Source of the DNA: Minisyncoccota bacterium
GTDB lineage: Bacteria; Patescibacteriota; Microgenomatia; UBA1400; UBA12028
Assembly: GCA_016211945.1 (NCBI GenBank)
Contig: JACRHV010000004.1
Location: 2,649 to 66,648 of the forward strand
DNA: 64,000 bases
Direction: 5' to 3'
Below, in pieces: positions 20,317 through 49,600 of the stretch; the first letter of the stretch is position 1, and the number at the start of each line of letters is the position of its first letter. Position numbers and translations under genes: made by a program. Under the pieces are notes generated by a model that ran no database searches, was not told the DNA's origin, and saw only the letters and a list, made by a program, of their open reading frames with translations.

Positions 20317-20910
20317 GTGTACGCTATGTTCGGTAATTTCTTTTCTTCCGTCGGCGAATTTTTTTTGGAGATTACCCAAACAGTTGTTGTTGTACTGTCT
20401 ATTTTTCTCATTCTCTATCTCTTTATCATGCAGCCTCATCAAGTCAACGGCCTCTCCATGTATCCAAACTATGAAAATGGCGACTATCTACTTACAGACA
20501 AAGTAAGTTATAAAACTGGCATGCCGCAACGGGGAGATGTTGTCGTTTTCCACGCACCGGAAGCCGCACAATGTCCAACAGGAACGGGCTGTGATTTTAT
20601 TAAGCGCGTCCTTGGACTTCCAGGAGAGTCCGTAGAGGTAAAGGATAATGGCATCTGGATTAACGGACATAAAATAACCGAGCCATACATCCCAGAAGAA
20701 AACTACACACGCCCCGGAGCGTTCACACAAAACAGGGTAATTACACTTGGACGAAACGAGTATTTTGTCTCAGGAGACAATCGTCCACATTCCAGCGACT
20801 CACGCGCATGGGGACCTATTACGCCAAAAGAGATTGTTGGAAAAGCATTTTTTCGGTACTGGCCGCCAAAAAGTTTTGGCATGTTCCCCGTCTATACATA
20901 CGCGTTCTAA
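20317..20910 (+). CDS. lepB: Signal peptidase I
   Basis: Catalytic Ser box GLSMYPN, Lys box GDVVVF, IKRVLGLPGESV and GDNRPHSSDSRAWG. Confidence 0.85.
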   Translation: MYAMFGNFFSSVGEFFLEITQTVVVVLSIFLILYLFIMQPHQVNGLSMYPNYENGDYLLTDKVSYKTGMPQRGDVVVFHAPEAAQCPTGTGCDFIKRVLGLPGESVEVKDNGIWINGHKITEPYIPEENYTRPGAFTQNRVITLGRNEYFVSGDNRPHSSDSRAWGPITPKEIVGKAFFRYWPPKSFGMFPVYTYAF

Positions 20911-29178: not shown

Positions 29179-29187
29179 GATGGAAGA

Positions 29188-30519: not shown

Positions 30520-30520
30520 G

Positions 30521-33457: not shown

Positions 33458-33460
33458 GGA

Positions 33461-34513
33461 TTAAATAACAGTAAGCCATAATCCAAAAAGAGTGAGCACA
33501 ATTCCTGTGAGAAGTGCGCGTTGCACAATTTTTGGTTCTGGCCAACCCCTATACTGTAACCAAAGGTGAAAAGGAGCGACAGGAAAAACTTTTTTTCCTC
33601 GCACTTTTTTGGAAAGTAACTGAACAAGACTCGAGCCAATCTCCGCAACAAATACGCCACCAATAATAACAAGTGCCATGACCTTTCCCAACAACAAACC
33701 AACGACCGCAAGTGTCGCACCAAATGACAGTGCTCCAACATCCCCCATCATGATACGCGCGGGAAAAATATTAAAATACAAAAAAGCAATGAGTGAGCCA
33801 ATCCACAGTGCAAGAAAAATAGACAATGTTGTATCAAGAATTGTGGCAGAGAGCACCCACAGGCCAAAAAGACAGATGAGAAGAACGCTTGCCGCTAATC
33901 CATCCAGCCCATCGGTCACATTCACAGCATTTGCAAATGCAACGATAGTAAACATGGAAAATGGAATAAACCACAAGCCCATGTGAACAACCCCAAGAAA
34001 AGGCACGTTGACTATGGATATCCCCAGTGATGAATACATCATCCAAGAAACGATCAGCGCTAACACGCACTGCAACGCAAGTTTCTGCCACATGTGCAAT
34101 CCGAAAAAACCAGACTTTTCAAACCCAAAAAACTTCTTAATATCATCATACAGACCAAGAATTCCAAATGACAAAAATGTAAAAAAGATAACGTTCAGCT
34201 CCTGGGATAATGGATACACGTTTGTCATTGTTACACCAAGTACGCGAAGCATTTGCGATATAGATGCAAATAGTATTGACACAACAAGCATAATAAGAAG
34301 TCCCGCCCCAATTGGCGTACCAACCTTATGTTTATGAAATGAGTCAAAAATAGGAGTCAGTTTGCCGAACATGTCCTGTGTTTGTTTATTTTTGCGTTGA
34401 AACTTTAACGTATACAGGAGATTAATGAATGGAACAATACACACGCTTGTCACGAGAAATGAAAAAAGTAAAAGACCTAATGCGAGTCCCATAGTATTTC
34501 CTTCATTATACAT
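33461..34513 (-). CDS. mraY: Phospho-N-acetylmuramoyl-pentapeptide transferase MraY
   Basis: NAVNVTDGLDGLA signature and 10-TM topology. Confidence 0.95.
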   Translation of the reverse strand: MYNEGNTMGLALGLLLFSFLVTSVCIVPFINLLYTLKFQRKNKQTQDMFGKLTPIFDSFHKHKVGTPIGAGLLIMLVVSILFASISQMLRVLGVTMTNVYPLSQELNVIFFTFLSFGILGLYDDIKKFFGFEKSGFFGLHMWQKLALQCVLALIVSWMMYSSLGISIVNVPFLGVVHMGLWFIPFSMFTIVAFANAVNVTDGLDGLAASVLLICLFGLWVLSATILDTTLSIFLALWIGSLIAFLYFNIFPARIMMGDVGALSFGATLAVVGLLLGKVMALVIIGGVFVAEIGSSLVQLLSKKVRGKKVFPVAPFHLWLQYRGWPEPKIVQRALLTGIVLTLFGLWLTVI

Positions 34514-35833
34514 TTATGCACGAACGATCTCTGCTCCCAAACTCCGCAGGCGTGAGTCAAACTGTTCGTAGCCTCGATCAATATGGTCAATAGTATGGAG
34601 CGTTGTGATTCCAGGCGCAATCAATGCAGCCAGTACAAGCGTTGCTCCGGCTCGAATATCAGGAACATCAAAGGTTCCTGCCCTTAGGGGGGTTTTCCCC
34701 TCTACTTCAACGGCGTGAAATGCGTGATGGACATGTTCGTCGTATGGAAATTGGTAAAAATCTGCCGCATGCGTAACCTTCGGCGAAAACAGTCGCATCT
34801 TTGCCCCCATCTTCACAAGATCAGGAACATATTGAAATCGAGTTTCTGAAACAGTTTCATGAATAACACTCTTTCCTTCTACTTGCGTAAGGAGCACTGC
34901 CCACAATGGCTGCCAATCTGTCATAAACCCTGGATGCGGAGCTGTTTCAACATCAGTCGCATGTAATTTCCCTTTTCCAAAAAAGCGAATTCCGTACGGA
35001 CCAATTTCATATCCCGCCCCAATTTCATCGAGTTTTTGTAGAAATGCATGGAGATGCTCCTGCTTTGCATTTTCTACGATAATATCTCCGTGTGTTGCAA
35101 TCGCGGCACAGGCATACGACACCGCCTCGTTTCGATCTGGCATGATTTTGTGAATTGCAGAGTGGAGCTCCTTCACACCGTCGATCTCAATAACCCGATT
35201 TTGTTTTCGTTGAATACGCGCACCCATCGCAACAAGAAATTCTATAAGGTCATCAATTTCAGGTTCAAGTCCTGCATTCTCTAAGATGGTTTTCCCGTCT
35301 GCGACAGAAGCGGCGATGAGCATTGATTCCGTTCCGGTATGCGTAACTTTTTCAAACTTGTATCGAGTTCCATGCAATCTTCCTTCAACCCAAGCTTCGA
35401 GTGTACTTCCGTGTATCTTTATTTTTGCTCCGAGCGCTTGCAAACCGAGAAGATGACGATCTATCGGCCGTTTTCCTATGGCGTCACCTCCCGGAAGTGG
35501 AACAACTGCATGCCCAAATCTAGACAATAATGGGCCGATAAACATCGTTGATGCTCGAGAAAGTTCTCCATATTTTTCTGGAATACTATCACTCGACATG
35601 TTTTTGGCTGAAATGAGCAGTGTTCGCTCGCCAACATTTCGAACGGTAGCGCCAACATCCTCAATCATCTGCCGAGTAATCTCAACGTCCCGAATATGTG
35701 AAAAATTAAGCAGTCGGGACTCACCATTCGTGAGCAAGGAGGCAATCATCAACTTGAAACTAGCATTTTTTGCACCACCCAAACGCACAGAACCGTATAA
35801 TCCCTTTCCGCCTTTAATAATGAATGAACTCAT
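34514..35833 (-). CDS. murA: UDP-N-acetylglucosamine 1-carboxyvinyltransferase MurA
   Basis: N-terminal IKGGKGLYGSVRLGGAKNASFKLMIASLL and EPSP-synthase-like fold length. Confidence 0.9.
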   Translation of the reverse strand: MSSFIIKGGKGLYGSVRLGGAKNASFKLMIASLLTNGESRLLNFSHIRDVEITRQMIEDVGATVRNVGERTLLISAKNMSSDSIPEKYGELSRASTMFIGPLLSRFGHAVVPLPGGDAIGKRPIDRHLLGLQALGAKIKIHGSTLEAWVEGRLHGTRYKFEKVTHTGTESMLIAASVADGKTILENAGLEPEIDDLIEFLVAMGARIQRKQNRVIEIDGVKELHSAIHKIMPDRNEAVSYACAAIATHGDIIVENAKQEHLHAFLQKLDEIGAGYEIGPYGIRFFGKGKLHATDVETAPHPGFMTDWQPLWAVLLTQVEGKSVIHETVSETRFQYVPDLVKMGAKMRLFSPKVTHAADFYQFPYDEHVHHAFHAVEVEGKTPLRAGTFDVPDIRAGATLVLAALIAPGITTLHTIDHIDRGYEQFDSRLRSLGAEIVRA

Positions 35834-35834
35834 G

Positions 35835-36815
35835 TCAGTCCTTTAAGAGAAAAACCTCGCGATCCAATTCTACCCCATATTTCTGCTGAACGACATCCTG
35901 AACATGTTTGGCAACTGCAAGAATTTCATGTGTTGTAGCACCACCAAGGTTCAAAATAAAGTTCGCGTGTTTGTCGCTCACCACTGCATCGCCGATACGG
36001 AAACCCTTAAGGCCTGCGAGATCAATAAGTTTTCCAGCGTGTGCAATACTACCATCGGCAAATATTCCATTTTTAAACATGCAACCCGAACTTGGGATGC
36101 CTAATGGCTGTGTTGTCGCACGTTTTACCGTTGCTTCTTTGGCGCGACGTTCCAACTCATCCTTCTTTCCCTTTTTCAGTGTAAAGTGTACGCGTAAAAT
36201 AACGTCATGCGTCTCGTGAAATAGTGAATAATCATACGCAAAATGTATTTGAGAGTGTACGACACTTTTTTTCTTCCCTGTTTTTTTTTCTACTATTTCT
36301 ACCTCTGTCACATGTTCACCAATGAGTTGATTCATATAGTGCGAGTTGTTATACACCGCCCCACCGACAGATCCCGGTACTCCAAGAAAATATTCAAGCC
36401 CTTCAAGCTCCTCGTTTATCGCTCTACGCACAAGGAGATTTGTTGGTACACCACTGTCTGCAATAATCACTGAAAACTCTTTGTCATGACGAACTTGAAT
36501 AGTAGTCGATACATTTTTAATGACAAGCCCGCGAAGCCCCTCGTCTGGCACAAGAACATTACTTGCGCCACCCAAAATGGTTAGCGGGACATTCTGTTTT
36601 ATGCACCACATAGAGAGTTTCTCAAGATCATTCGAATTTTTTACAGATACAAAAACCTCGGCACATCCACCACTTTTCATATAAGTATGATGCACAAGTG
36701 ATTCCTCTGAAAAAAATTGGAGATTAGGAAAAGCTCTGGATACTGATTGAAACAGTGCGTCGGACATTCGTTGTATTTTAACACAGGTCGTGGATGTGAT
36801 AGAGATCTCCGGCAC
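35835..36815 (-). CDS. murB: UDP-N-acetylenolpyruvoylglucosamine reductase MurB
   Basis: FAD-binding region (TILGGASNVLV) and MurB C-terminal domain. Confidence 0.9.
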   Translation of the reverse strand: MPEISITSTTCVKIQRMSDALFQSVSRAFPNLQFFSEESLVHHTYMKSGGCAEVFVSVKNSNDLEKLSMWCIKQNVPLTILGGASNVLVPDEGLRGLVIKNVSTTIQVRHDKEFSVIIADSGVPTNLLVRRAINEELEGLEYFLGVPGSVGGAVYNNSHYMNQLIGEHVTEVEIVEKKTGKKKSVVHSQIHFAYDYSLFHETHDVILRVHFTLKKGKKDELERRAKEATVKRATTQPLGIPSSGCMFKNGIFADGSIAHAGKLIDLAGLKGFRIGDAVVSDKHANFILNLGGATTHEILAVAKHVQDVVQQKYGVELDREVFLLKD

Positions 36816-38187
36816 CCAATGTAATCACGACATCTCGAGGTTTAACCAGCTCATGTATGACCCGTACGGCCTCCTGAATTGTGTGCACATTCTTCGCTTT
36901 TTTGCCTATTTTCTGGACAAGGTGATCGGCGTGTACAGTTGCATCATCTTTTTCCCGTGCAGACGCAAAAATATCGAGAAGGAAAACAATGTCAGCGTGT
37001 GAAAAGCTTTGTGAAAACTCGTTGAGTAACGCTTTGGTTCGACTATATGTATGTGGCTGAAATACTGCGACTATTCTTGAGTCAGGGTACCACTCTCGCA
37101 ATGCGCCCAACGTTGCTTGAATCTCTGATGGATGGTGAGCATAGTCGTCATAATACTGAACGTCTTTTTTCATTCCTTTATTTTCAAAACGCCGCATAGT
37201 TCCAGTAAACTTCTCAAGTGCCTCAATTCCTCTTTCTATAGAAACCCCACATGTTGAAGCCGCAGCTAACGCGTATGCCGCGTTCATTTGATTAAAGATA
37301 CCAGGAAGATGTAGGCGTATGTTTTGCGTCTGCCCACGCACGGTTATATCAAGACTCGTCATGTCCTTTTTTGTACGATACTCGCCCAGTTGAATGTCAG
37401 CTCGTTTTTCTCTTGAAACGATGACTCGATGAAAGGGTGGGGGCGATAATTCGGTCAGTCGCACAAGTTCTGCATCTTCTCCGTTGATGATCAGTGTGCC
37501 TGTTGGTGGAAGATGTGAAAAGAATTGGAGATATGCTTTTTTTGTATCGTCAAACGACGAATACACATCGGGATGATCGAACGCGATATTGGTACATACG
37601 ATACATTCGGGAAATTGTGAAAGAAAACGAGGAGTACGATCTTTTGCTGGATCTTTCACGTACTCGTCGGCTTCTGCAACAAAAAAGTCACTTGCAGGCA
37701 CATAACGGCCGGTTGCGTTTAGATTAAAAACGTTTCCCACACCAATGGAAAAGCTCGGGTGTAGACCTGCGTACTCGAGAATCCATGCGATCATCGCGGA
37801 TACCGTCGATTTTCCACCAACACCGCACACCGATATACCTCGCTTTCCTTTCATCAACTCTCCCAACGCGTCGGCGTGGGAAAGGACCGGTATACCACGC
37901 TGTATCGCTGTCAGAACATCGGCGTTTTGACTCCCCTGATGTGCGCCGGAGTAAATCACAAGATCAGTTTTCACACCTATGTTCTTTGGAGAAAATTCGT
38001 TATACATGTTTACAGAAAGTTTCTTGAGTATATTTGCCGTTACAAAATTCTCTACAAGATCGCTTCCTGTTATTTCTTTTCCCAAATCGGTTAAACACTG
38101 CGCCAATGATGTCATTGCAACGCCTTTTATTCCTACTAGATGAATTGAATGATGTGATTCAAATGGCATAGCTACTCTTCCATCCAT
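36778..38187 (-). CDS. murC: UDP-N-acetylmuramate--L-alanine ligase MurC
   Basis: HLVGIKGVAMTSLAQCL N-domain, GKST P-loop (GVGGKSTV), Mur ligase C-domain. Confidence 0.9.
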   Translation of the reverse strand: MDGRVAMPFESHHSIHLVGIKGVAMTSLAQCLTDLGKEITGSDLVENFVTANILKKLSVNMYNEFSPKNIGVKTDLVIYSGAHQGSQNADVLTAIQRGIPVLSHADALGELMKGKRGISVCGVGGKSTVSAMIAWILEYAGLHPSFSIGVGNVFNLNATGRYVPASDFFVAEADEYVKDPAKDRTPRFLSQFPECIVCTNIAFDHPDVYSSFDDTKKAYLQFFSHLPPTGTLIINGEDAELVRLTELSPPPFHRVIVSREKRADIQLGEYRTKKDMTSLDITVRGQTQNIRLHLPGIFNQMNAAYALAAASTCGVSIERGIEALEKFTGTMRRFENKGMKKDVQYYDDYAHHPSEIQATLGALREWYPDSRIVAVFQPHTYSRTKALLNEFSQSFSHADIVFLLDIFASAREKDDATVHADHLVQKIGKKAKNVHTIQEAVRVIHELVKPRDVVITLGAGDLYHIHDLC

Positions 38188-38855
38188 GCTACCACGCCAA
38201 AGTGTGGCGCGCCTGTCGTCATCTTACGTTCAAGCTTCCATCTCCGATATGAGTAATATGATTCGGTTTCATGGTAGGTACACCCTCCATCACTGTACAG
38301 GTGATCCTCTGGTATACCGAATGTTCTGCATTGGTCGAGCACGGCATCTTGCAACGAAACAGAGTACTGTTCTTTTTTTTCGTGTACATAGGGTTTCCAT
38401 TCTGGAAAATGTGACTGTATTGGCAAACTTTGCATTGTGTTGCAGCACTGCTGTATAGATGGCCCTATCCACACAAAGATATCCTGAGGATCAGCCATTG
38501 TTGTCGAACACAGATCTGCCAGCGTCAACGGAACAATACTCTGAAGTAGCGATCTCCATCCTCCATGAATCACTGTCAGGCCCTTGCCTTTAATAGAACA
38601 TACTATCGGTAAACAGTCTGCCACTCGAATACCTAAAGCATGCGCCTGATCTGTGGTAATGAGTGCATCACACTGGAACATTTCATGTTTCGTAACAACC
38701 CTTCTCTCAGATCCATGCATGAGTCGAGGAACAATGAGCGTTTTCCCATAGTCCTTCATCTTTTGGTGAAGCACTGTCTCAGATGAAATATCGCCATCTG
38801 CTCTTCCCGTCAACACAATCACACACCCGGGAATGATGTGTTGGAGCTCAACCAT
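38172..38855 (-). CDS. pgeF: YfiH/PgeF (DUF152) purine nucleoside phosphorylase/peptidoglycan editing factor family
   Basis: Conserved VIHGGWRSLLQ (HAGWRG-like) motif, ~230 aa. Confidence 0.7.
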   Translation of the reverse strand: MVELQHIIPGCVIVLTGRADGDISSETVLHQKMKDYGKTLIVPRLMHGSERRVVTKHEMFQCDALITTDQAHALGIRVADCLPIVCSIKGKGLTVIHGGWRSLLQSIVPLTLADLCSTTMADPQDIFVWIGPSIQQCCNTMQSLPIQSHFPEWKPYVHEKKEQYSVSLQDAVLDQCRTFGIPEDHLYSDGGCTYHETESYYSYRRWKLERKMTTGAPHFGVVAWMEE

Positions 38856-38858
38856 GCG

Positions 38859-39605
38859 TTACCCTTCCTGTCGCTTCATCATTTCTTGTTCAGCCTCTTG
38901 AAGTTGTTGTGGTGTATTAATTCCTATTCCTATCGCCTTATCTTCAACAGTATAGGTGTCAATGTGTTCATTGTTTTGGAAACCTAGCGCAACAATGTCT
39001 GTAAAGTAAAACTCCGCTGAAATAGGATTTCTTTGAATCTGCGGAAGATATTTTTGCAAAAATGTATATGTATAGACCGCGTTCCCCGTGTTTATTTCAG
39101 TAATTGCTTTTTGCTCATCTGTTGCATTTTTTTCTTCAACAATTCCTGTCATTTTTCCTTTAGCATCACGGAGAATGCGACCGTACCCTACTGGATCTGT
39201 ATGCGTGGTAATTAAGGTCATGGCGGCACCGGATTTCTTGTGTTTGTCTAACAGTTCTTGTAAAACTTGTGTTGTGTAAAATGTTGAGTGATCACCATAA
39301 AGAACAATAACTTCTTTGGTATTCTCTGGTATATATGGCATCGCTGCCCGAACCGCATCCGCCGTCCCATCCGCTCGTGTTTGTTCGGCAAAAAGAACAG
39401 AGTCTTTGAGATACTCCATAACGCTCTCTTTTGCAAAGCCAACCACAATAATCGGCCTCTCAATCCCAAGACCTTTTAGTGCTGCGACAGGATACGAAAT
39501 CATCGGCTTCCCACCAACCTCATACATAACCTTATTCTTTTCGATCGCATTCATGCGCGTTCCCCTGCCAGCTGCTAAAACAATTGCTTGAATTGATGCG
39601 TTCAT
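38859..39605 (-). CDS. Sugar-1-phosphate nucleotidyltransferase (GlmU N-terminal-like, no acetyltransferase domain)
   Basis: IVLAAGRGTRM signature and 248 aa NTP_transferase fold. Confidence 0.6.
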   Translation of the reverse strand: MNASIQAIVLAAGRGTRMNAIEKNKVMYEVGGKPMISYPVAALKGLGIERPIIVVGFAKESVMEYLKDSVLFAEQTRADGTADAVRAAMPYIPENTKEVIVLYGDHSTFYTTQVLQELLDKHKKSGAAMTLITTHTDPVGYGRILRDAKGKMTGIVEEKNATDEQKAITEINTGNAVYTYTFLQKYLPQIQRNPISAEFYFTDIVALGFQNNEHIDTYTVEDKAIGIGINTPQQLQEAEQEMMKRQEG

Positions 39606-40576
39606 AGGTACTCCATAAGTATGTTGGCTATTTTATCTGGATCGTGACGTAAAAGCGAGCGACGCAAAATATCCGCTCCGTGCTTTCCCATGTGATCTTG
39701 AACTACAAAATTTCCTTCGATACATCTCTTCTCTTTTTCCATGTCATGAACCACAGGATACTCATCTTCTTTCGCGTACGTATCCAATATATTTTGGGGG
39801 ATTTTTCCAGTGTTCACAATAATATAGTCCACCTTTTTTCCAATCGCCAACTCAATACCTTCGAGGTGTCGTGAAACATTCCACTGATGTGTTTGATTGT
39901 GTCGTGTCATTAAGTTTACGATGAACACAACCTTTCCCTTGACCTGAGAAAAAGCATTCTTCATTCCTTCAACAATGAGAGCGGGCATCACGCTGCCGAA
40001 ATAATCGCCAGGACCGATAACAATCATGTCCGCATCAATAAGCGCTTTATTTGCCTTGTGAAAAAGTGGTGCTGAAGGGTGAAGTTTCACAGATTCTACC
40101 TGTTTACCATCAATACAGGAGTTAAGGTTATCTTCTCCAACAACGAATGAGCCGTCAGTATAGTGAATGACAAGATCTACCGTGTGTTCGGTAACCGGAA
40201 GTATTTCCCCACGTAAACGAAAAACTTTTTCTGTAATTGCCAATGCATCTGCTGTAGATCCTGCCATATCCTGCAGGGCAGTGAGGATAAGGTTCCCGAG
40301 ATTATGTCCTTTCAGTCCAGTCCCTTTTTCAAATCGATACAAGAGAACTTTGCGAATCCACTCCTGGTTGTGCGAACCTGCAAGTGCGGCCAATGACTGT
40401 CGGAGATCTCCAACCGGTTGAAATCCAAACTCATCTCGTAATCTCCCTGTTGACCCCCCAGAGTCAGCAACAGAGATAAGGGCGGTGATGTGTACTGGTT
40501 TTGTTTGAAGACCCGATAGTATCGTTGACGTTCCTGTTCCACCGCCGATGAGAACAATGCGTTTTCTTGGAGACAT
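39602..40576 (-). CDS. yvcK: YvcK/CofD-family gluconeogenesis factor (UPF0052)
   Basis: IVLIGGGTGTSTILSGL and ADSGGSTGRLRDEFG motifs. Confidence 0.8.
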   Translation of the reverse strand: MSPRKRIVLIGGGTGTSTILSGLQTKPVHITALISVADSGGSTGRLRDEFGFQPVGDLRQSLAALAGSHNQEWIRKVLLYRFEKGTGLKGHNLGNLILTALQDMAGSTADALAITEKVFRLRGEILPVTEHTVDLVIHYTDGSFVVGEDNLNSCIDGKQVESVKLHPSAPLFHKANKALIDADMIVIGPGDYFGSVMPALIVEGMKNAFSQVKGKVVFIVNLMTRHNQTHQWNVSRHLEGIELAIGKKVDYIIVNTGKIPQNILDTYAKEDEYPVVHDMEKEKRCIEGNFVVQDHMGKHGADILRRSLLRHDPDKIANILMEYL

Positions 40577-40578
40577 TT

Positions 40579-41787
40579 CTACGTCTTTCTTGATTCAAGA
40601 GCTGTACGGGCTTCCTCTTGATCAGACCAAGGGACTTCGTGTTTGCCATCAAGATTCATGCTTCGTTCGTGTCCTTTTCCAAATATTCCAACAACATCGC
40701 CTTTCTTAGCCAATGTTTGTATCGCAAAACGTATCGCTTTCCCCCTCTCCGCAATCTCATAGATATTTCCCCAGTTTTTAACAACACCCTCTTTCATTTG
40801 CCGAATAATGACATGGACATCCTCAACTCGCGGGTCTTCCGCGGTAAACACCGCACTGTCGGCACGTTCAGATGCTATTCTTCCCATCGCCGGTCTTTTC
40901 GACTGGTCACGAAGACCAGCACAGCCAAATACAGCAATGAATGCATTTCCCTGTTTTACACGAGACCGCAGTGTTGTAAGTGCACGTTCAAGTGCGTTTG
41001 GTGTATGCGCAAAATCTACAACAACCGTGATTCCCAAATTGTTGGGTATCTCTTCCATACGACCTTTCACACCAGGAAATGATTGAATCGCTTTTATACA
41101 CACATCTGTCCCTATGTGAAGACATTGACACGCTGTTATTGCGGCCAATCCATTCTCTCTGTTGTATGGTTCGGCAATATATCGAACAAGTGCGGCCCGG
41201 ATACTGCTGTCACATGTCTTGTTATCGTATGAAATGATCTTTAGATTTTTATCTTGCAACTTCTTCTTTACTAAAGCCTCAGAGCGATCATTTTTATTGA
41301 GTATTGCTGTTTTTGCTCGCGCAATGAATGACGCTTTTGTGGAAAGATAGTGCTCATATGTGCTGTGGTAATCCAAATGTTCACGCGTGATATTTGTAAG
41401 TACAACGACTTCTGGATTGATGCCAAACAACCGATGTTGGTGAATACCGTGTGACGTTGCTTCAAGGACAACATATTCGTATCCCCTTTCCGCTACAGAA
41501 CGAAGCAATCTCTGCAATGCAAACGGACTTGGAGTTGTCACATGAAATCCTGTATCTATTTCTTGGTCGCCAATATACGCCGCAACCGTTGAAATTAGCG
41601 CTACCTTTTTCCCAGCTTTAGAGAGAATGTGATAGATCATCGTCGAGGTTGTGGTTTTCCCATCCGTTCCCGTCACCCCGATGATACGAATATGCTTTCG
41701 CCATGCACCAAACACAATCCAAGCAAACAATCCCTGGAGAAAATGGTACGGCTGTTTTATTGCAATGAGCAAAGACTGCAGCTTCAC
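40579..41787 (-). CDS. murE: Mur ligase family protein, MurE-like, lacking the usual N-terminal domain
   Basis: P-loop IGVTGTDGKTTTSTMI near the N-terminus, DFAHTPNALERAL (the DYAHTPDAL motif of MurE), C-terminal Mur ligase domain. 402 aa is short for MurE. Confidence 0.6.
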   Translation of the reverse strand: MKLQSLLIAIKQPYHFLQGLFAWIVFGAWRKHIRIIGVTGTDGKTTTSTMIYHILSKAGKKVALISTVAAYIGDQEIDTGFHVTTPSPFALQRLLRSVAERGYEYVVLEATSHGIHQHRLFGINPEVVVLTNITREHLDYHSTYEHYLSTKASFIARAKTAILNKNDRSEALVKKKLQDKNLKIISYDNKTCDSSIRAALVRYIAEPYNRENGLAAITACQCLHIGTDVCIKAIQSFPGVKGRMEEIPNNLGITVVVDFAHTPNALERALTTLRSRVKQGNAFIAVFGCAGLRDQSKRPAMGRIASERADSAVFTAEDPRVEDVHVIIRQMKEGVVKNWGNIYEIAERGKAIRFAIQTLAKKGDVVGIFGKGHERSMNLDGKHEVPWSDQEEARTALESRKT

Positions 41788-41830
41788 CGTGTCATTCTAC
41801 CACGCACGCGTCTTGTGATACCATCAATCT

Positions 41831-43315
41831 ATGCGCCTTTTGCTCGAATTCTTTTTCCTCCCATACATTGAACTTTTCCGACAGATCCATACAACACATC
41901 ACCCTTTTCGCCGCTTTTTCCAAGGACTGCCTCTTTTTGCTCTGCTCCTCATCCTGTGGGTTAATGCTTTTTTTGTTTCTGGAACATTTGCGTATGCTGC
42001 ATTGTTTCAGGCTGCTGATAAGATTGGGATTGTTTCGTCTGCTGTACATATATCAGGAACTGGATCAATGTATCCAACCTTCCCAAAAGGAACCGGTAGA
42101 ACACTTGAAGATTTGGCTCGTGAAGATGTTGCTGCTCCGCTGATGAGAACGTATCCTGGGGGCTTTCATCTTTTTAACCGTTGGTACTCCCGTTACACAC
42201 TTCATCGTGGCGATATTGTGAGCTTCTCAAATGAAAAAACAGCAGAGCTTATCCAAAACGATGGTTTAGCAACGGATCGCGTCAACGGATTTGTAAAGCG
42301 TGTTGTTGGGTTGCCTGGAGATGTCATCGAGATTCGTGATGGTTTTGTCGTTGTAAACGGCGAGAAGATTGAGGAGCCATACACAGCTACACCTCGATCA
42401 ACATTTGGAGGAGCATATCTCCCTGACTGTCACCGATTGGAAATTCCAGAGGGAAAGACCTTTGTTATGGGCGATAATCGTAAGGCAAGCAACGATTCAC
42501 GCCATGTACTCGGTCTTGTAGATCTTCAAGATATCTCTCGTGTATTACCGTACGCAAACCAGACACCATACCAATCTCTTTGGCACGATCCATCGCAGGA
42601 CTATCAACAATCACATACCGCGCTCCTCCATGAACAGGAATACATTGACAAATTGAACGCAATTCGAACAGAACATGGGGTAAAACCATTGAAGTTCCAA
42701 CCGAAATTGGAACAATCGGCAAAGTTGCGCGCGCAAAACATCTTGAAATACAACGATCTTTCATTTGAGGCAACACAGAGCGGCTATACCATGGAAAAGG
42801 CGATGAAGGAGTCTGGGTACTCGAACATTATTTGGGGAGAGGCTCCTACTTTGGGGTATTACACTGCAGATGAGCTCTTGGAAAACTATGCAGAATTTCC
42901 ATCGTGGAAAAAGTTTCTTCTTGATAGCAGATATCAGGAAACTGGTATTGCCGCGGTTGTTGGTGAGCTGAATGGCTGTCCTGTACAAATTGTTGTTCAG
43001 CACGTTGCTGGGTATATGCCTCCAAACTATAAAAAGGAAGATATTGAGGGATGGAAGACCTCGCTTGACCGTTTACGTACTGTTCTGAAAAGCTGGGAGT
43101 CTGCAAGAAGTTTTGGCGCACAATATGAGGAGCGGAAGTCACAGTATGAAAAAATGATACAACTCATTAACGAGCGCATCGCCATTGCGCAGGTTATTTT
43201 TGCAAAAATGAGCGCAAACCAGTGGCTGTCCGATGATGAAAAGGCGTTGATCAATAAAGATAAAACTCTATATCAATCACAAGAATCGTTGGCAAAAATA
43301 TTAAATGAGAGATAG
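41831..43315 (+). CDS. Signal peptidase I fused to a C-terminal CAP/SCP/PR-1-like (YkwD-like) domain
   Basis: N-terminal TM, SPase I boxes (GTGSMYPTFPKG; GDIVSF; VKRVVGLPGDVIE; GDNRKASNDSRHVLG), then a ~200 aa extension (LNAIRTEHGVKPLKF...WGE...GCPVQIVVQHVAGY) resembling CAP domains. Lies antisense within the dcw cluster. Confidence 0.65.
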   Translation: MRLLLEFFFLPYIELFRQIHTTHHPFRRFFQGLPLFALLLILWVNAFFVSGTFAYAALFQAADKIGIVSSAVHISGTGSMYPTFPKGTGRTLEDLAREDVAAPLMRTYPGGFHLFNRWYSRYTLHRGDIVSFSNEKTAELIQNDGLATDRVNGFVKRVVGLPGDVIEIRDGFVVVNGEKIEEPYTATPRSTFGGAYLPDCHRLEIPEGKTFVMGDNRKASNDSRHVLGLVDLQDISRVLPYANQTPYQSLWHDPSQDYQQSHTALLHEQEYIDKLNAIRTEHGVKPLKFQPKLEQSAKLRAQNILKYNDLSFEATQSGYTMEKAMKESGYSNIIWGEAPTLGYYTADELLENYAEFPSWKKFLLDSRYQETGIAAVVGELNGCPVQIVVQHVAGYMPPNYKKEDIEGWKTSLDRLRTVLKSWESARSFGAQYEERKSQYEKMIQLINERIAIAQVIFAKMSANQWLSDDEKALINKDKTLYQSQESLAKILNER

Positions 43316-43321
43316 AGTTCT

Positions 43322-45100
43322 TTATTTTGGCGCGATCTTCATTCGAATGAAAAGGTCTCGAGCAATAGAAAACCACAGTGGGGCCGCTGTTTCAGACCCC
43401 CATGGGGAGGACGTTGGTTCTCTGAGTTTTACCAACATAACAAATTTTGGATCATCAGCAGGAGCAAAGCCTACAAAACTTGCCACGGTCTTTTCGTCAT
43501 CATAGTGTCCAGACACTGCAACTTGTGCCGTTCCCGTTTTCCCTGCAATGCGATACCCTTTTGGTGTTGCCCATTTTGCGTCTCCGTGTTGCGCTGCGGC
43601 CTCCATCATCAACGTGACCTTGTCTGCGGTATCTTGCGAAATGACTTGTCGAAGTGGTCTTGGGTCTATCGTAATCATGCGATCACCTTGTTTTACTGAT
43701 TGGGTGAGGAACGGCCTCATCATCAGTCCTTTATTCGCGATTGCTTGAGCCGTAGAGAGCATTTGTATGCCAGTCACAACAATACCCTGACCAAATGACG
43801 CCGTTGCAACATCAATATCCTTCCATTCTTTTCTAAACGGTGGAGTTGCTTCTTCCTGGAGGTCTATTCCTGTTTTTGTCTCGAGACCAAAGGAGCGAAG
43901 ATACTCTACAAATTTCTCTTTTCCAACCTTGTCCGTCACAAAGATCATCGCGGTGTTGTCTGAATGCACAAGTCCGTCTGCTATCGTTGTATTTGGATAA
44001 TATTTTTCATTCCATGTTTTTATCGTATACCCTGATATTACCCGGGGACCTGTGCACCGATCGCACTGTGTATCCGGCGACACCGCGCCAGCATCAATGC
44101 CAGCTGATACCGTGAGGATTTTTAGCGTAGAACCTGGCTCATACACATCTTGAACAAAAAGATTTTTATACGTCTGCGGATCAAAGGTATAGTATTTTGC
44201 AGGATCATAGCTTGGGAAGGAGGCCATGGCAAGAATGGCGCCCGTTTTGGGGTCCATAATTGCAGCTTCCGCGGTTTTACTTCCATAACGGACCATTCCT
44301 TCTTTTAATTTTTCCTCAAGCAAAAACTGAAGATCTCGTCGAATTGTCAAGGTGATATCTCTTCCATCGCGCGATCCAATGACATCGTACCCGCCGATAG
44401 CAATGGGTAACCCGAGTGCATCTTTTTCCTGTGTCACAACACCTTCTTGGCCTCGTAGTTCTCGGTCATAATACCCTTCGATACCAAAATACCCTTGTTC
44501 GTGGTCACGCTCATCTCGTCCCACGAAACCTAAGACATTCGCCGCCATCGAAGCCTCAGGGTAATACCGAACCTCTTCCCGATCAAATCCAAGTCCCGAT
44601 AACGCCAATTGATCTATCATTCCTTTTATCTCTCTGGGTAACTTTCTTTTGAGTGATACCCATTGCAAGGAAGGGTCTTCAAGTCTTTTTAGAAACGTCG
44701 TTTTCCATTCTCCTTGCGTTTGTTCAAGATATGCGGATGACGTGGCGAGTTCTGTACTGACGTTCTCATCAACGGGCATAAATGAGGTAAGCAACGATGC
44801 AATCTGCTCTCTTGTTTGAGTAAACTTTTTTGGTTCAGCAAACAAAGTATATACATCACGGTTTGTTACGAGCAAATGACCGTCTGAAGAGTAAATATTT
44901 CCCCGACTTCCTGTTGTTTTTTTCACGGATGTATATTGCGATTCTGCCGCCGCTTGCAGTTTGTCAGATTGTAAAATCTGCCAATAAAAAAGTCGGACGA
45001 GGAGAAGAATAAATATTGCAGAAAAACTGAATCGGATGAATACCACGCGCTGATGCCACGCGTGATCTTCGATATACGGAATGGGTTTTTTCATGTCCAC
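43322..45100 (-). CDS. ftsI: Penicillin-binding protein transpeptidase FtsI (class B PBP)
   Basis: SXXK (GSTLK), SXN (HSDN) and KTGT (GKTGTAQ) motifs; N-terminal TM anchor. Confidence 0.9.
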   Translation of the reverse strand: MDMKKPIPYIEDHAWHQRVVFIRFSFSAIFILLLVRLFYWQILQSDKLQAAAESQYTSVKKTTGSRGNIYSSDGHLLVTNRDVYTLFAEPKKFTQTREQIASLLTSFMPVDENVSTELATSSAYLEQTQGEWKTTFLKRLEDPSLQWVSLKRKLPREIKGMIDQLALSGLGFDREEVRYYPEASMAANVLGFVGRDERDHEQGYFGIEGYYDRELRGQEGVVTQEKDALGLPIAIGGYDVIGSRDGRDITLTIRRDLQFLLEEKLKEGMVRYGSKTAEAAIMDPKTGAILAMASFPSYDPAKYYTFDPQTYKNLFVQDVYEPGSTLKILTVSAGIDAGAVSPDTQCDRCTGPRVISGYTIKTWNEKYYPNTTIADGLVHSDNTAMIFVTDKVGKEKFVEYLRSFGLETKTGIDLQEEATPPFRKEWKDIDVATASFGQGIVVTGIQMLSTAQAIANKGLMMRPFLTQSVKQGDRMITIDPRPLRQVISQDTADKVTLMMEAAAQHGDAKWATPKGYRIAGKTGTAQVAVSGHYDDEKTVASFVGFAPADDPKFVMLVKLREPTSSPWGSETAAPLWFSIARDLFIRMKIAPK

Positions 45101-45106
45101 TCAAGT

Positions 45107-45385
45107 TTACCGCATTGCAACAGGTCGTGCTGCGGTTAGGAAAGAAACCGATGAAATAGGGATGAATCCTTGCGCTACTGCTTCCTCGCGTAATGTTCGA
45201 AGAGACAACGAGGTGGCAAGTTCCTCATCTAAGTCTTTTTGTTCCAGACGCAACACGATGTTTTTTTGTTCGAGGTTATGTACGTACTCACCAATATTGA
45301 CCGTTTTTGCAGAATAGGCAATGTTTGCAATCGCCAAACCAAATACGACACACGCGGGAACAATGATTGCCAGAATTGTCTTCAT
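45107..45385 (-). CDS. ftsL: Cell division protein FtsL-like (small bitopic membrane protein)
   Basis: 92 aa, N-terminal TM then coiled-coil-like segment, canonical position between rsmH and ftsI. Confidence 0.6.
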   Translation of the reverse strand: MKTILAIIVPACVVFGLAIANIAYSAKTVNIGEYVHNLEQKNIVLRLEQKDLDEELATSLSLRTLREEAVAQGFIPISSVSFLTAARPVAMR

Positions 45386-46272
45386 TTCACACCACCTTTT
45401 ACAAAAATTCTAAGCTTTGCACTCCGACTTCTTGGGTTTTCTCGCTGTTCTTCCATACTTGGTTCTAACGGCTTTTTTGTGAGCTGTGTCCCTTTTTTCT
45501 CTATCTCCCAAGTTTTCATCGCGTGCTTCACGATACGATCCTCACCTTCATGAAAACTTATCGTCACTAACCGCCCGCTGTCCTCGAGAAGATCGAGCGC
45601 GGTGGGCAGGGCCCGTTCGATACTCCCAAGTTCATCGTTGACGACCAAGCGCAACGCCATAAATGTTTTTGTTGCTGGGTGAATGTCTCCGGGGTGTTTG
45701 CGACCCCCCACCGCTTTCTCTACGATCTCGGCTAACTCAGTTGTTGTCTCGATCGGCTTATTTATTCGATTGCGCAGTAAAGCTTCCACAATTGTCCGAG
45801 CACGGAATTCCTGAGCATACGTCGTAAGTAAGTCATACAGTTCCTTTCTGCCTAAAGCATTGACTAAATCTTTTGCTGTTACTCCCAATCGTTTATCCAT
45901 GCGCATATCGAGCATTGCTTCCTGTTGAAAGGAAAAACCTCGGTCTGCGGTGTCTAACTGGACGCTGTTCAAGCCAAAATCAAACAAAATTCCAGTGATT
46001 TTTCTCGTGGTGGTGTCCGGAATTGTGCCAAGTTCTGAAAAGTTTGCGTGAACTAATTTTATGTCACCCTTTTCAAGCTCCTTCACAAAATGCACACTTC
46101 CGTACGCAATTGCCTCGTCATCGTGATCAACCGCAATCACCTTGCCACCTTTCTGTAGGATTGCGGCAGTATGCCCACCTCGGCCAAACGTGGCATCCAC
46201 ATACCACTTGCCTTCTTGAACCCGCAGTCCATCAAGTGCTTCATGAAGCATGACCGGAGTATGGCTAGACAT
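45382..46272 (-). CDS. rsmH: 16S rRNA (cytosine1402-N4)-methyltransferase RsmH (MraW)
   Basis: HTPVMLHEALDGL...YVDATFGRGGH; start set at MSSHTPV. Confidence 0.9.
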   Translation of the reverse strand: MSSHTPVMLHEALDGLRVQEGKWYVDATFGRGGHTAAILQKGGKVIAVDHDDEAIAYGSVHFVKELEKGDIKLVHANFSELGTIPDTTTRKITGILFDFGLNSVQLDTADRGFSFQQEAMLDMRMDKRLGVTAKDLVNALGRKELYDLLTTYAQEFRARTIVEALLRNRINKPIETTTELAEIVEKAVGGRKHPGDIHPATKTFMALRLVVNDELGSIERALPTALDLLEDSGRLVTISFHEGEDRIVKHAMKTWEIEKKGTQLTKKPLEPSMEEQRENPRSRSAKLRIFVKGGVK

Positions 46273-46711
46273 GGTCCTCGCCTTTCTGCGGAACATCAAA
46301 CTGCTCTGCGATTTCCTCGGCATGCTGTTCAAGTGATTCCATGTATGTGTGATATGCGTCTCGATCCCAAAGTTCTACTCGATTTGCGGAACCCGTAAAG
46401 ACTACCTCTTTGGTAATGTTCGCTTTATTACGAAGATATTCCGGAATGACGGCCCTCCCAACGGTATCAAACTCGAGTTCGCTTGCCTCGTTTGCCATGA
46501 GACGTGCGAAGTCGCGGTGGACTTTTTTGGTGACACTACTATCCTCTAATGTTCCTATAAATGCTCGCCAATCCTGCTGTGAAAAAAGGAAAAGACATCC
46601 ATCCAATCCTCGTGTTAACACTGGTTTTTCTCCAAGAGAGTTGCGAAACTTCACAGGAACAGACACTCTCCCTTTCTCTTCTAACTTGTGATAATATGTT
46701 CCGATATACAT
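46265..46711 (-). CDS. mraZ: Transcriptional regulator MraZ
   Basis: Duplicated MraZ-type halves (MYIGTYYHKLEEKGRVSVP...), first gene of the dcw cluster. Confidence 0.9.
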   Translation of the reverse strand: MYIGTYYHKLEEKGRVSVPVKFRNSLGEKPVLTRGLDGCLFLFSQQDWRAFIGTLEDSSVTKKVHRDFARLMANEASELEFDTVGRAVIPEYLRNKANITKEVVFTGSANRVELWDRDAYHTYMESLEQHAEEIAEQFDVPQKGEDHV

Positions 46712-46808
46712 GGTTCTAGGCTTATTTCCCACTAATTTCCACTAGATTGAGTGTAAGCGAAATACAACGGCATGTCAACGCGAAGAAAAGACGAAAAAGA
46801 GAGTAAGC

Positions 46809-47996
46809 TTAAAGAATCGAGTTTGCTAGCAGTTGGAGAAGTTTTCCACTATCTCCAAATGCAATCGTTGGAGATTTTTGTTTTTCAAGCAGTATGAGCC
46901 CATCTTTAGCTTTATCTCTATGATGTTTTCCGTGTATCCATGTATAACTCGCATACCAACATCCATGTTTGGGAAAAACTCCAGATAGAATTGCCCCCAT
47001 ACTTTCAAGATAGAGAGAGATCTGACGAAAATCTTTCATACATGGTATTTGGAATATTGTTGTTTCAAATACACTCTCTTCGTCTAGTAATTCTTTAAGC
47101 ATTTCCACACCTAAAACATCGGAAACAACACGCGTATGTGTTACGGAATTTTCATGAATTGACATCTCGCGAAAAAAATACTGCCTTGACTTCTTTGTAT
47201 CCACAGCTCGACCTATTTCCTTAAGTTGTTCTGTTGAATAAAGAAAAAATGGTTTTTGAGCGTCTGTCATATCGTGTGGTGGATTTATGTATTCATGTGT
47301 TCCTGGTTTTTCGTGGAAAAACGTAGCAAATCGGCCTAAACCAGAGTCACTATCTGTTGATAACATGGCTTGAGCTATGCTTGCATTAAATTTTTTTCCT
47401 ATATGTGCATTCCAATCTAAGACAACGTCTTGTTGTATCACGAATGAGGATGGATGAAGCGCCAAAGCTGGTGTGTCTATTGTTGATAGAAAACGTTGAA
47501 TTGCGAGTGTTAACGTTGTTGAATCAGACACAAGTGTGTAATCTGGAAAAAGCGTTGAAGTTTCGTGAACGGGTATCGCAAACGCAGATAAAACACCATT
47601 ATTCTGCTTTTCTGGGAGTGTCGCTACTCGACCAAACTCAACCGTTCTTTCTGCGTGATCAAAAACAAGACTAACTGTCCCCACTGGTTTCTGTTCATGA
47701 TCTGTAGCAAGAAAACAGAGTGTTTGAATATCAATGAAATTATTTGCCTGAGATACAGATAAAAGAAATGCGTGAAGTATGTCCTCTGGATTATTAAAAA
47801 CTTCATAAAAATAGTGAACAAGTTTTCCTAGCCCCCAAGCTCTCCGCAACATTTCAGAAATATGGTGTGCGTCATCTAATGTTTCTGCAAGACGAATATC
47901 ATACCCTTGACTACGGTATGATTGGCCAGCTAACAGATTCTGAACAATTTCAGATTGATTATCCAATTTTTGGAGTAATTCTTTGCGTAATGGCAT
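46809..47996 (-). CDS. Hypothetical protein (395 aa), possibly with a GNAT-like region
   Basis: Clean ORF; segment VGTVSLVFDHAERTVEFGRVATLPEKQNNGV is weakly GNAT-like; otherwise unassigned. Confidence 0.4.
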   Translation of the reverse strand: MPLRKELLQKLDNQSEIVQNLLAGQSYRSQGYDIRLAETLDDAHHISEMLRRAWGLGKLVHYFYEVFNNPEDILHAFLLSVSQANNFIDIQTLCFLATDHEQKPVGTVSLVFDHAERTVEFGRVATLPEKQNNGVLSAFAIPVHETSTLFPDYTLVSDSTTLTLAIQRFLSTIDTPALALHPSSFVIQQDVVLDWNAHIGKKFNASIAQAMLSTDSDSGLGRFATFFHEKPGTHEYINPPHDMTDAQKPFFLYSTEQLKEIGRAVDTKKSRQYFFREMSIHENSVTHTRVVSDVLGVEMLKELLDEESVFETTIFQIPCMKDFRQISLYLESMGAILSGVFPKHGCWYASYTWIHGKHHRDKAKDGLILLEKQKSPTIAFGDSGKLLQLLANSIL

Positions 47997-48340: not shown

Positions 48341-49600
48341 ATGGATAATTATCTTTATCCTCTTCCACGAAAAATATTACTCAAAAGATTTGAGAGCTTA
48401 TTCTGGTGTATTGCCCATCGCTCTTCCGTGAGCTTCGTCGGTCTTCCAGAAAGTGCAAAAAGCGGGTATCTTCAATTCATTCTCAGTAAACCAGACCATC
48501 TTGAGGAATTATTACAAGATCATATAAAAAATACTATTCTTGTCTATTTCTCGCCAATATCATTTGAGCCGAATAATCCATACGCATGGCTTCACCAACT
48601 CAACATTAAACTCGCTGAGATAGATTCGACATACCACTGCATACAAAGCAATGACCCTGTCATAGTGCTCTCTTCAATACAACACTATCTCATTCAGCTT
48701 CATGATCGAGGCAAGCATTGCGTTTTCATCATAAACAATCAGGAGTACTGGACCTCTTTGCCCTCTGTGGCAGGACAAATATGGAAAGCAATTTTTGATA
48801 CAAAAAGGCATCCGCCAAACCCGGCATGCTCACTTGTTTTCCTCCTTCACACATCTCCATACATCCTTCAAGATTCATCTGATTTTTTCCGCGAACTATA
48901 CATTCCTCTGCAAGAAAATGTGCTTTTCTTTCCAACTCTTTCTCAAGAAGAATCTTTATATACTATTCAACGTTTTTCTTCCTTTTCTCATAATGAGTTG
49001 TCCATTCAGATAAAAAATATGCTTGTTCAATATTCTGGTGGATATTATCCCGTTTTGAGAGAGAGCGTACGATTATTCTTCAGAGTGAAGAGAAAAATTA
49101 CGCAAAAGCATCTTCTTCAATTAGGGAAACATGACGTTCTTCTTTCTCTTTTTCAAAAGATGTGGGACTCATTCACCGAATCAGAAAAAAGTGTTTTGAG
49201 ACGTATTGTTCAGTACAAATCCGTTCCCAAAGATACAGAACAGCAACAATTTCTTTCTAGATTAGGAGTCATAGCAAACACCGGAAAACTCCAATCATTG
49301 TGGTTTGAGATATTTATCCGTGAAAAAATGTATCGCTCGGCATTATCGCCATTTGAGGTTGATCGATTTTCATATCTGTCCGGCATTGAACAAACATTGA
49401 TCCATGAATTTCTCAAACGGAAAAATGAAGTTATTTCCCGAGAAGAAATCGCTCAAATTCTCTGGGGAGAAAAATATCTTGAAAAATATTCTGATTGGGC
49501 GATAGATAAAACCATCTCGAGAATGCGAAAAAATATGGAACATCATCACTCTACTATTAGTGTTCAAACCATCAAGGGAAAAGGGTATCAAATCATATGA
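48341..49600 (+). CDS. OmpR/PhoB-type winged-helix DNA-binding protein with a ~300 aa N-terminal degenerate P-loop NTPase-like domain (no receiver domain recognised)
   Basis: C-terminal trans_reg_C-like segment ISREEIAQILWGEKY...DWAIDKTISRMRKNM...ISVQTIKGKGYQI. N-terminal Walker-A-like GLPESAKS and Walker-B-like HCVFIINNQE, both degenerate. Confidence 0.6.
   Translation: MDNYLYPLPRKILLKRFESLFWCIAHRSSVSFVGLPESAKSGYLQFILSKPDHLEELLQDHIKNTILVYFSPISFEPNNPYAWLHQLNIKLAEIDSTYHCIQSNDPVIVLSSIQHYLIQLHDRGKHCVFIINNQEYWTSLPSVAGQIWKAIFDTKRHPPNPACSLVFLLHTSPYILQDSSDFFRELYIPLQENVLFFPTLSQEESLYTIQRFSSFSHNELSIQIKNMLVQYSGGYYPVLRESVRLFFRVKRKITQKHLLQLGKHDVLLSLFQKMWDSFTESEKSVLRRIVQYKSVPKDTEQQQFLSRLGVIANTGKLQSLWFEIFIREKMYRSALSPFEVDRFSYLSGIEQTLIHEFLKRKNEVISREEIAQILWGEKYLEKYSDWAIDKTISRMRKNMEHHHSTISVQTIKGKGYQII

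Follow-up and report, generated by a model that had tools for sequence, protein, structure and literature searches.

Type I signal peptidases are essential enzymes and antibiotic targets, and they usually consist of a single domain. What role, then, should be attributed to a signal peptidase that is fused to a CAP/SCP-like domain and that is encoded antisense in the midst of a dcw (division and cell wall) gene cluster? The question is raised by a gene of a Minisyncoccota bacterium, located in a stretch of 64,000 nucleotides (assembly GCA_016211945.1, contig JACRHV010000004.1, positions 2,649 to 66,648) that is referred to below, at its full length, as the window. A preliminary description, made from the sequence of the window, had taken the presence of a second, canonical lepB as a sign that the fused copy may have a specialised role, such as the processing of a specific envelope substrate or a cell-wall-associated function. 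Having compared the family in terms of sequence, predicted structure and genome context, we consider it the most probable reading (roughly 60%) that the fusion is a paralogous type I signal peptidase, active and specialised, whose CAP domain serves as a non-catalytic accessory module. The protein has three parts and is not rare, i.e. it is common in one group of ultra-small bacteria (the Microgenomates within the Candidate Phyla Radiation, CPR), and its place between murE and ftsI would represent an old insertion that was kept in one lineage, with no functional link that extends to the family as a whole.

Architecture and distribution of the fusion protein

The claim that the first ~240 residues carry all the boxes of a type I signal peptidase was borne out. 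Pfam Peptidase_S26 (PF10502) matched residues 71-235 (E 1.3e-27, 97.2 bits against a cut-off of 22.9), and the NCBIfam equivalog sigpep_I_bact (TIGR02227) matched residues 70-235 (92.1 bits against a cut-off of 47). The four boxes are all present, namely box B (SGTGSMYPTF, which includes S79), box C (RGDIVSF, residues 126-132), box D (KRVVGLPGD, which starts at K156) and box E (GDNRKASNDSR, residues 214-224); by profile scores, dyad, boxes and fold (see below) the protein belongs to the S26A peptidases. Among 190 distinct members of the fusion family, over which all conservation counts were made, S79 is present in 188 (the other two are gapped), K156, R157, D215 and R224 are present in all, and within box E G214, D215, N216, R217, S220 and R224 are invariant. 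With its Ser79/Lys156 dyad, the fusion would be an active, membrane-anchored type I signal peptidase. A hydropathy scan returned a single hydrophobic segment in the 494 residues, and the two arginines that precede it (R27/R28) suggest, by the positive-inside rule, that the N-terminus lies inside and the catalytic domain outside. In these respects, i.e. the N-terminal anchor, the dyad, boxes B-E, the two profiles and the predicted extracytoplasmic catalytic domain, the protein resembles E. coli LepB, B. subtilis SipS and S. aureus SpsB. It differs from them in having ~250 additional C-terminal residues (CAP plus a three-helix bundle), a segment between boxes B and C that is ~20 residues longer, an unusually fixed PTFPKG following the nucleophile, and an invariant cysteine in the S26 domain that is the predicted partner of a cysteine in the CAP domain.

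The remaining ~250 residues had been described as one CAP-type domain. This holds for residues ~262-400, in which Pfam CAP (PF00188) was found at residues 273-379 and above its cut-off (E 7.5e-8, 33.7 bits against 21.1), but not for residues 401-494, which form a separate three-helix module. In a diverse sample of the family, 21 of 22 members matched Pfam CAP individually, and the three-helix module always accompanies this CAP subfamily, whether fused or stand-alone. The more specific NCBIfam models scored far below their cut-offs, both that of YkwD (TIGR02909, residues 267-379, 40.7 bits against 171) and that of DalA (NF052539, residues 268-375, 23 bits against 200), and membership of the DalA, YkwD and TraF families was rejected for this reason. 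Moreover, the N-terminus is a transmembrane anchor and there is no cysteine before residue 200, hence the lipoprotein signal that characterises DalA is absent.

A structure of the fusion was predicted with AlphaFold2 on the basis of an alignment of 121 sequences (pLDDT 94, pTM 0.80). In the model two short helices are followed by a long helix (25-65), a mainly beta S26 domain that extends to ~240, a short linker, an alpha-beta-alpha domain (268-394) and three long helices (402-492). Foldseek matched each half independently to structures in the PDB. The S26 half recovered the signal peptidases SpsB (4wvg, E 2.8e-7), 4me8 (TMt 0.71) and E. coli LepB (1kn9), as well as those of E. faecalis and B. 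anthracis; the CAP half recovered an SCP protein of B. anthracis (4ifa, E 1.2e-6), Borrelia BB0689 (4d53, E 3.4e-6, TMt 0.76), S. aureus SAV1118 (4h0a), GAPR-1 (5vhg/1smb), snake CRISPs and, with an E-value of about 1e-3, the CAP domain of PrgA. A sequence search of the PDB with the CAP-helical half, using either the single sequence or the family profile, found no CAP chain, since this half is too divergent, and it is thus the comparison of folds that links it to CAP structures. With the bacterial CAP/SCP/PR-1 proteins (the YkwD family, 4ifa, 4h0a, 4d53) the fused domain shares the alpha-beta-alpha sandwich, the N..R motif of helix 1, the GE motif and a predicted extracytoplasmic location; it differs in lacking both canonical histidines, in being joined to a protease and in missing the cut-off of the YkwD model. 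The enterococcal surface exclusion protein PrgA (6z9k/6z9l), which may be a functional parallel, likewise combines a surface CAP domain with long helices, although the Foldseek match is weak and PrgA has a much longer stalk and no peptidase domain.

The identical protein is present at NCBI under the title "MAG: signal peptidase I [Candidatus Pacebacteria bacterium]", where it is encoded on a 331-kb contig; such metagenome-assembled genomes (MAGs) are placed by the NCBI taxonomy under Minisyncoccota, i.e. Patescibacteria/CPR. A search of 5.8 billion proteins yielded 881 homologues of the fusion (E < 1e-5), the best 120 of which are 412-641 residues long, cover 84-100 % of the query and are named, where the source gives any name, "signal peptidase I" of Patescibacteria, Parcubacteria or Shapirobacteria. 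Members of ~600 residues carry ~90-100 additional N-terminal residues with three further hydrophobic segments. Among the genomes of GTDB species, scanned at one per species, 175 encode a relative; these belong mostly to Microgenomates lineages, and the records that name a lineage include Amesbacteria, Daviesbacteria, Woesebacteria, Shapirobacteria, Gottesmanbacteria, Roizmanbacteria, Levyibacteriota and the "Microgenomates group". Many TPA_asm MAG records that contain the fusion are titled "uncultured Gammaproteobacteria" or "uncultured Pseudomonadales" (loci L005, L008, L009, L013, L016 and others); these titles look like wrong taxonomy, and the dcw synteny of L005 is of the Microgenomates style seen in the window. 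Hundreds of copies are therefore already public under a generic name. The preliminary description was not aware of any report of such a protein, and full-text searches of the literature likewise returned no description of an S26-CAP fusion, the nearest papers being those on DalA (PMC10470522) and SpsB (PMC11898559).

Table 1. Position of the fusion gene, of its domains and key codons, and of the neighbouring and paralogous genes in the window.
Feature	Coordinates	Strand	Remarks
S26-CAP-helical fusion gene	41831..43315	+	494 aa plus stop, ATG start; identical to MBI5151144.1
Single N-terminal transmembrane anchor, residues 29-59	41915..42007	+	hydropathy scan; within AlphaFold2 helix 25-65
S26 signal peptidase I catalytic domain, residues 70-240	42038..42550	+	profiles, fold, conservation
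Ser79 codon, predicted catalytic nucleophile	42065..42067	+	188/190 relatives, 2 gapped
Lys156 codon, predicted general base	42296..42298	+	190/190 relatives
Cys200 codon, S26 domain	42428..42430	+	invariant; one of two ectodomain Cys
CAP/SCP/PR-1-type domain, residues 262-400	42614..43030	+	profiles, fold; F312/W359 at canonical His positions; E337, E348 invariant
Cys383 codon, CAP domain	42977..42979	+	invariant among fusions; absent from stand-alone CAP relatives
C-terminal three-helix module, residues 401-494	43031..43312	+	AlphaFold2 model; W408, W422, W465 nearly invariant
ftsI/PBP (PBP_dimer + Transpeptidase)	43322..45100	-	convergent neighbour, 6-bp gap to fusion
murE	40579..41787	-	TIGR01085 at 351 bits, short N-terminus; divergent neighbour, 43-bp gap
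Canonical short LepB	20317..20910	+	197 aa; S47, K96; Peptidase_S26 E 4.2e-47; invariant C86-x5-C92

The CAP domain, the cysteine pair and the stand-alone relatives

The mean pairwise identity within the family is 0.20 for the N-terminus with its transmembrane segment, 0.50 for the S26 domain, 0.52 for the CAP domain and 0.36 for the helical module; by this measure the CAP domain is under no less constraint than the catalytic one. This constraint extends to the groove, in which D309, S311, E313, S317, Y330, N332, E337 (the glutamate of "GE(N)") and E348 are invariant or nearly so. The metal-binding His/Glu/Glu/His tetrad of the CAP superfamily is nevertheless incomplete. The positions of its two histidines were assigned by alignment with canonical bacterial CAP proteins, and presumably correspond to residues 312 and 359, with the GAPR-1 tetrad (H54/E65/E86/H103) as the guide. 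At the first of these positions the window's protein has F312 (in the family F in 148 and Y in 27 of the 190), and at the second it has W359 (S in 75, T in 48, W in 39). The conserved His/Glu site that had been attributed to the domain is thus retained only in part: the glutamates remain, while both histidines have been replaced.

The ectodomain contains exactly two cysteines in 189 of the 190 members; C200 (S26 domain) and C383 (CAP domain) are conserved in all 190. Because there is one cysteine per domain, both are invariant and the one in the CAP domain is specific to the fusions, an interdomain C200-C383 disulfide is likely. Weak covariation (mutual information with average product correction, MI-APC) connects the S26 hairpin residues 172/179 with residues 248/264/375/377 of the linker and the CAP domain, which would agree with a fixed interface between the two domains.

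Complete proteins that lack the S26 domain offer a view of how this combination may have arisen. When the CAP segment alone was used as query against 1.84 billion cluster representatives, 1258 representatives were recovered (E <= 1e-3); the top matches are fusions, and the list includes proteins of 287-370 residues (P0175, P0182, P0201, P0208, P0187, P0190, P0195) that combine at least one transmembrane segment with a CAP domain and with the C-terminal helices seen in the fusions. They are encoded by genuine, complete genes. Like the distant canonical CAP proteins P0253, P0223 and P0226, they have histidines in the motifs "(F/W)xH" and "SPxH(K/R)xNIL". The stand-alone proteins (P0175, P0182, P0201, P0208, P0187) share with the fusions the CAP subfamily and the helical module (40 % identity over 229 ungapped residues) and, in some cases, the N-terminal polytopic membrane region of the 600-residue fusions, but they differ from them in lacking S26, in keeping the canonical histidines and in having no cysteine at the position equivalent to C383.

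The 602-residue fusion P0112 and the 370-residue stand-alone protein P0187 are collinear in two blocks that flank the S26 domain, namely the N-terminal membrane region (16-137 versus 16-129, E 2e-11) and the CAP domain with its helices (373-601 versus 138-366, 40 % identity without gaps, E 2e-57), and ~235 residues (transmembrane segment plus S26) are exclusive to the fusion. This collinearity on both sides argues that an older CAP protein acquired S26 by insertion. In the simplest history an S26 cassette would have entered an older membrane protein of the type transmembrane segment-CAP-helical module, after which the CAP histidines would have been lost and the cysteine pair gained, and the N-terminal polytopic region would have been shed in the lineage of the window. 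The contrast between stand-alone forms that keep the histidines and fused forms that lost them while gaining a cysteine makes this a clean evolutionary transition.

The surroundings of two stand-alone genes can be seen on long contigs, the only two available, i.e. those of P0175 (L087, gene 8001-8873) and P0187 (L095, gene 8001-9113). On both, a large serine recombinase (Resolvase + Recombinase + Zn_ribbon_recom) is encoded within a few kb and there are runs of small unannotated genes, and on L095 an HTH_17 protein is also encoded near P0187; these surroundings may represent an integrated mobile element. A phage origin of the stand-alone CAP genes was considered and rejected, as the PHROGs profiles matched the CAP domain alone (phrog_16914) and none of the neighbours.

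The canonical paralogue and the genome context

The second, canonical lepB that had been reported for the window is real, as its Peptidase_S26 match attests (Table 1). The S26 domains of the two proteins share 37 % identity over 100 residues, and close homologues of the canonical LepB are 61-86 % identical to it. Two relatives encode such a homologue and the fusion on one contig (JBFOMO010000346.1 and ERZ4756921 NODE_474), which together with the window makes three genomes in which both are present. In both relatives the synteny is kept, with an unannotated protein of ~590-610 residues encoded upstream and parB downstream. For the same pairs of genomes, the identity to the window's proteins amounts to 84 % and 72 % for the canonical LepB, and to 66 % and 49 % for the fusion. 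In the 17-kb loci of other lineages no second lepB was found, a range that is too short to be informative. The canonical LepB has a cysteine pair of its own, C-x5-C just before box D, which is invariant in 121 of 121 homologues and suggests a structural ectodomain disulfide in CPR signal peptidases; ectodomain cysteine pairs would thus be a habit of these organisms. The upstream gene in the window (18420-20249, plus strand), directly adjacent to lepB, encodes 609 residues with an apparent signal peptide (…REVQA/Q) and had no NCBIfam match at E <= 1e-5; a similar-sized unannotated protein (589-592 residues) is encoded upstream of lepB in the relatives L092 and L094.

The dcw cluster of the window (27883-46732), the genes of which were identified with Pfam and NCBIfam profiles, contains the fusion as the only real plus-strand gene. 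The order on the minus strand is mraZ, rsmH, a small ftsL-like open reading frame (ORF), ftsI, murE (with the fusion lying between the latter two), a CofD/YvcK-like gene, an NTP-transferase gene, a PgeF-like gene (Cu-oxidase_4), murC, murB, murA, mraY, ftsW, murG, an unassigned ORF, ftsA and ftsZ. The fusion is indeed, as had been noted, the sole plus-strand gene between ftsI and murE, convergent with the former and divergent from the latter, and the intervals to them measure 6 and 43 bp, respectively. Proteins of this cluster were compared by tblastn with 84 loci, and genes were looked up individually. The arrangement murE / fusion (plus strand) / ftsI recurs in L001/L002 (66 % identity of the fusion), L005 (61 %), L006 (58 %), L090 (58 %), L089 (51 %) and L091 (49 %). 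In a neighbour-joining tree these fusions define a clade of 24 of the 190 leaves, and all eight members that were tested have the arrangement; for L091 this location was a prediction made from the tree, and it proved correct. In L001/L002 glmS (6190-7962, plus strand; GATase + SIS) lies directly upstream of the fusion, which results in an island of two plus-strand genes within the cluster.

Outside this clade the picture is a different one. In L037 the fusion is adjacent to the dcw cluster but not within it, and murE and ftsI are contiguous there; in L012 and L070 it is located next to murA; and in ~72 of ~80 loci its distance to any dcw gene exceeds 8 kb. Since the remaining loci lie elsewhere and murE directly adjoins ftsI in L037, the interruption of the cluster is a derived state, stably inherited in one lineage. 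The gene has neither the co-directional orientation nor the family-wide location that define a dcw gene, and the location is weak evidence for a role in cell wall synthesis or division, because it is confined to one clade and there is no shared neighbour elsewhere. Of the two things that had to be checked in related genomes, the fusion itself is conserved throughout the family; the dcw location is conserved in the close relatives but not in the ~72 other loci.

A scan for promoters and terminators around the fusion gene gave matches that were no more frequent than in shuffled sequence, and no terminator-like hairpin was found in the 6-bp gap between the fusion and ftsI. In L089 the 3' ends of these convergent genes overlap by ~40 nt (7457-7497). 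Overlap of the antisense transcripts of the fusion and ftsI is therefore probable.

A few further features of the region were observed. The murE product (402 residues) matched Mur_ligase_M and Mur_ligase_C but not the N-terminal Pfam domain Mur_ligase, its match to the equivalog models begins at about profile position 100, and the same short form (393-403 residues) is present in the relatives L001, L089 and L091. No murD or murF was seen within the cluster, and the ORF at the position expected for ftsQ (30521-31309) had no NCBIfam match. Just past mraZ there are two plus-strand genes, 48341-49600, in the product of which an OmpR/PhoB-type winged helix at the C-terminus (residues ~345-418) was the only match, and 49597-51207 (536 residues); neither the latter nor the minus-strand ORF 46809-47996 (395 residues) matched any family.

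Possible functions of the fusion

The loss of the histidines from a CAP domain that is strongly conserved and probably tied to the protease by a disulfide makes a non-catalytic accessory role the most likely one. The histidine-less domain, probably locked to the protease via Cys200-Cys383, would recognise a ligand or substrate, or would position or regulate the protease, outside the membrane. The coexistence with a slower-evolving canonical LepB in turn leads to the reading of the fusion as a specialised signal or leader peptidase, which would serve a subset of the exported proteins in Microgenomates-type CPR bacteria.

Several points weigh against this view. The co-occurrence of the fusion and the canonical LepB has been observed in three related genomes only, and the faster evolution of the fusion fits the specialised role that had been proposed for it and is compatible with it, but does not prove it. 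No recurring partner or candidate substrate emerged from the clusters of flanking ORFs (79 loci) or from the Pfam families of 126 immediate neighbours: the best flanking clusters, glycosyltransferases and large polytopic membrane proteins, occur at 9 of the 79 loci, and the best Pfam family in 4 of the 126 neighbours. The MI-APC covariation may be phylogenetic in origin, many CPR bacteria live under anoxic conditions, which makes disulfide formation there uncertain, and the choice between insertion and loss of S26 was made from the ancestral-looking histidines of the stand-alone forms.

The alternative that survives best, although we consider it unlikely, is that of a general housekeeping signal peptidase, in which the CAP-helical part is structural or stabilising (for instance by retaining the protein in the envelope) and does not affect the choice of substrates. 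The intact catalytic boxes and the score on the NCBIfam equivalog would fit such an enzyme, as would the scattered locations of the gene, beside unrelated housekeeping genes and without a dedicated partner, and its very wide occurrence in Microgenomates. Nevertheless, the same genomes contain a canonical LepB that is more conserved, and a CAP domain that is as constrained as the protease and retains many invariant polar residues exceeds what a passive appendage needs.

The position between ftsI and murE would find an explanation if the fusion were a division or cell-wall factor, the CAP domain of which attaches to peptidoglycan, in the manner reported for DalA, and thereby targets the peptidase to the septum; we regard this as quite improbable. 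DalA, a divisome-associated, peptidoglycan-binding CAP-like lipoprotein of Rhodobacterales (PMC10470522), is likewise an envelope protein with a CAP-related domain, its model (NF052539) weakly matched the fusion, and SpsB of S. aureus has been linked to septal trafficking (PMC11898559). The dcw position is kept in its clade down to 49 % identity, and at individual loci glmS lies upstream on the same strand (L001), murA directly downstream (L012, L070) and mraZ adjacent (L037). DalA is, however, an outer-membrane lipoprotein of a diderm and has no peptidase domain, and its model scored 23 bits against a cut-off of 200. Moreover, the dcw link of the fusion is limited to one clade, no dcw gene lies within 8 kb at ~72 of the ~80 loci, no Pfam family exceeds 4 of the 126 flanking proteins, and the opposite strand rules out co-transcription with the dcw genes.

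Still less probable, indeed very much so, is a bifunctional enzyme whose CAP domain would itself be catalytic, or bind lipids or sterols, irrespective of the peptidase. For CAP proteins elsewhere, roles as proteases, protease inhibitors or lipid binders have been proposed, and the (near) invariance of the groove residues D309, S311, E313, S317, Y330, N332, E337 and E348 could be explained in this way; yet both histidines of the tetrad are lost and their replacements are variable, the fusion-specific cysteine pair argues for two domains that act as one unit, and we know of no robust enzymatic activity that has been established for bacterial CAP domains. Finally, an artefact in which adjacent lepB-like and ykwD-like genes were joined by a sequencing or assembly frameshift, the eventuality that the preliminary description had named as a refutation, can be dismissed as practically negligible, because the same continuous architecture recurs across 881 homologues, which come from independent assemblies, and across the genomes of 175 species, the exact protein is deposited at NCBI, the AlphaFold2 model is confident over its full length and the linker has conserved residues (W251, D253, D257).

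Returning to the specialised peptidase with an accessory CAP domain, a more far-reaching version can be put forward tentatively, and with considerable doubt. The CAP domain with its three helices may be an ancient surface-recognition device of the CPR, encoded by itself near serine recombinases, that captured an S26 domain in the Microgenomates, the result being a covalently stapled, substrate-selective maturation protease for CPR-specific surface proteins, or else a protease that its own CAP domain controls in cis, in a manner resembling some eukaryotic CAP inhibitors of serine proteases.

The fusion does not amount to a system of a new kind, and the dcw location, a lineage-specific curiosity, means less than it first appears to. 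What is worth recording is the combination of domains, the transition marked by histidine loss and cysteine gain, and the putative stand-alone ancestor. If the far-reaching version is true, this would be the first type I signal peptidase of which a built-in CAP domain determines the specificity or the activity, and a concrete biochemical role would have been found for bacterial CAP domains. The fusion offers a natural experiment on how the substrate choice or the activity of a signal peptidase can be modulated, and at the same time a handle on the role of the bacterial CAP/SCP domains. CPR bacteria such as the Microgenomates rely on their cell surface for an episymbiotic lifestyle, and the presence of a second, dedicated leader peptidase hints at a specialised exported proteome in these organisms.

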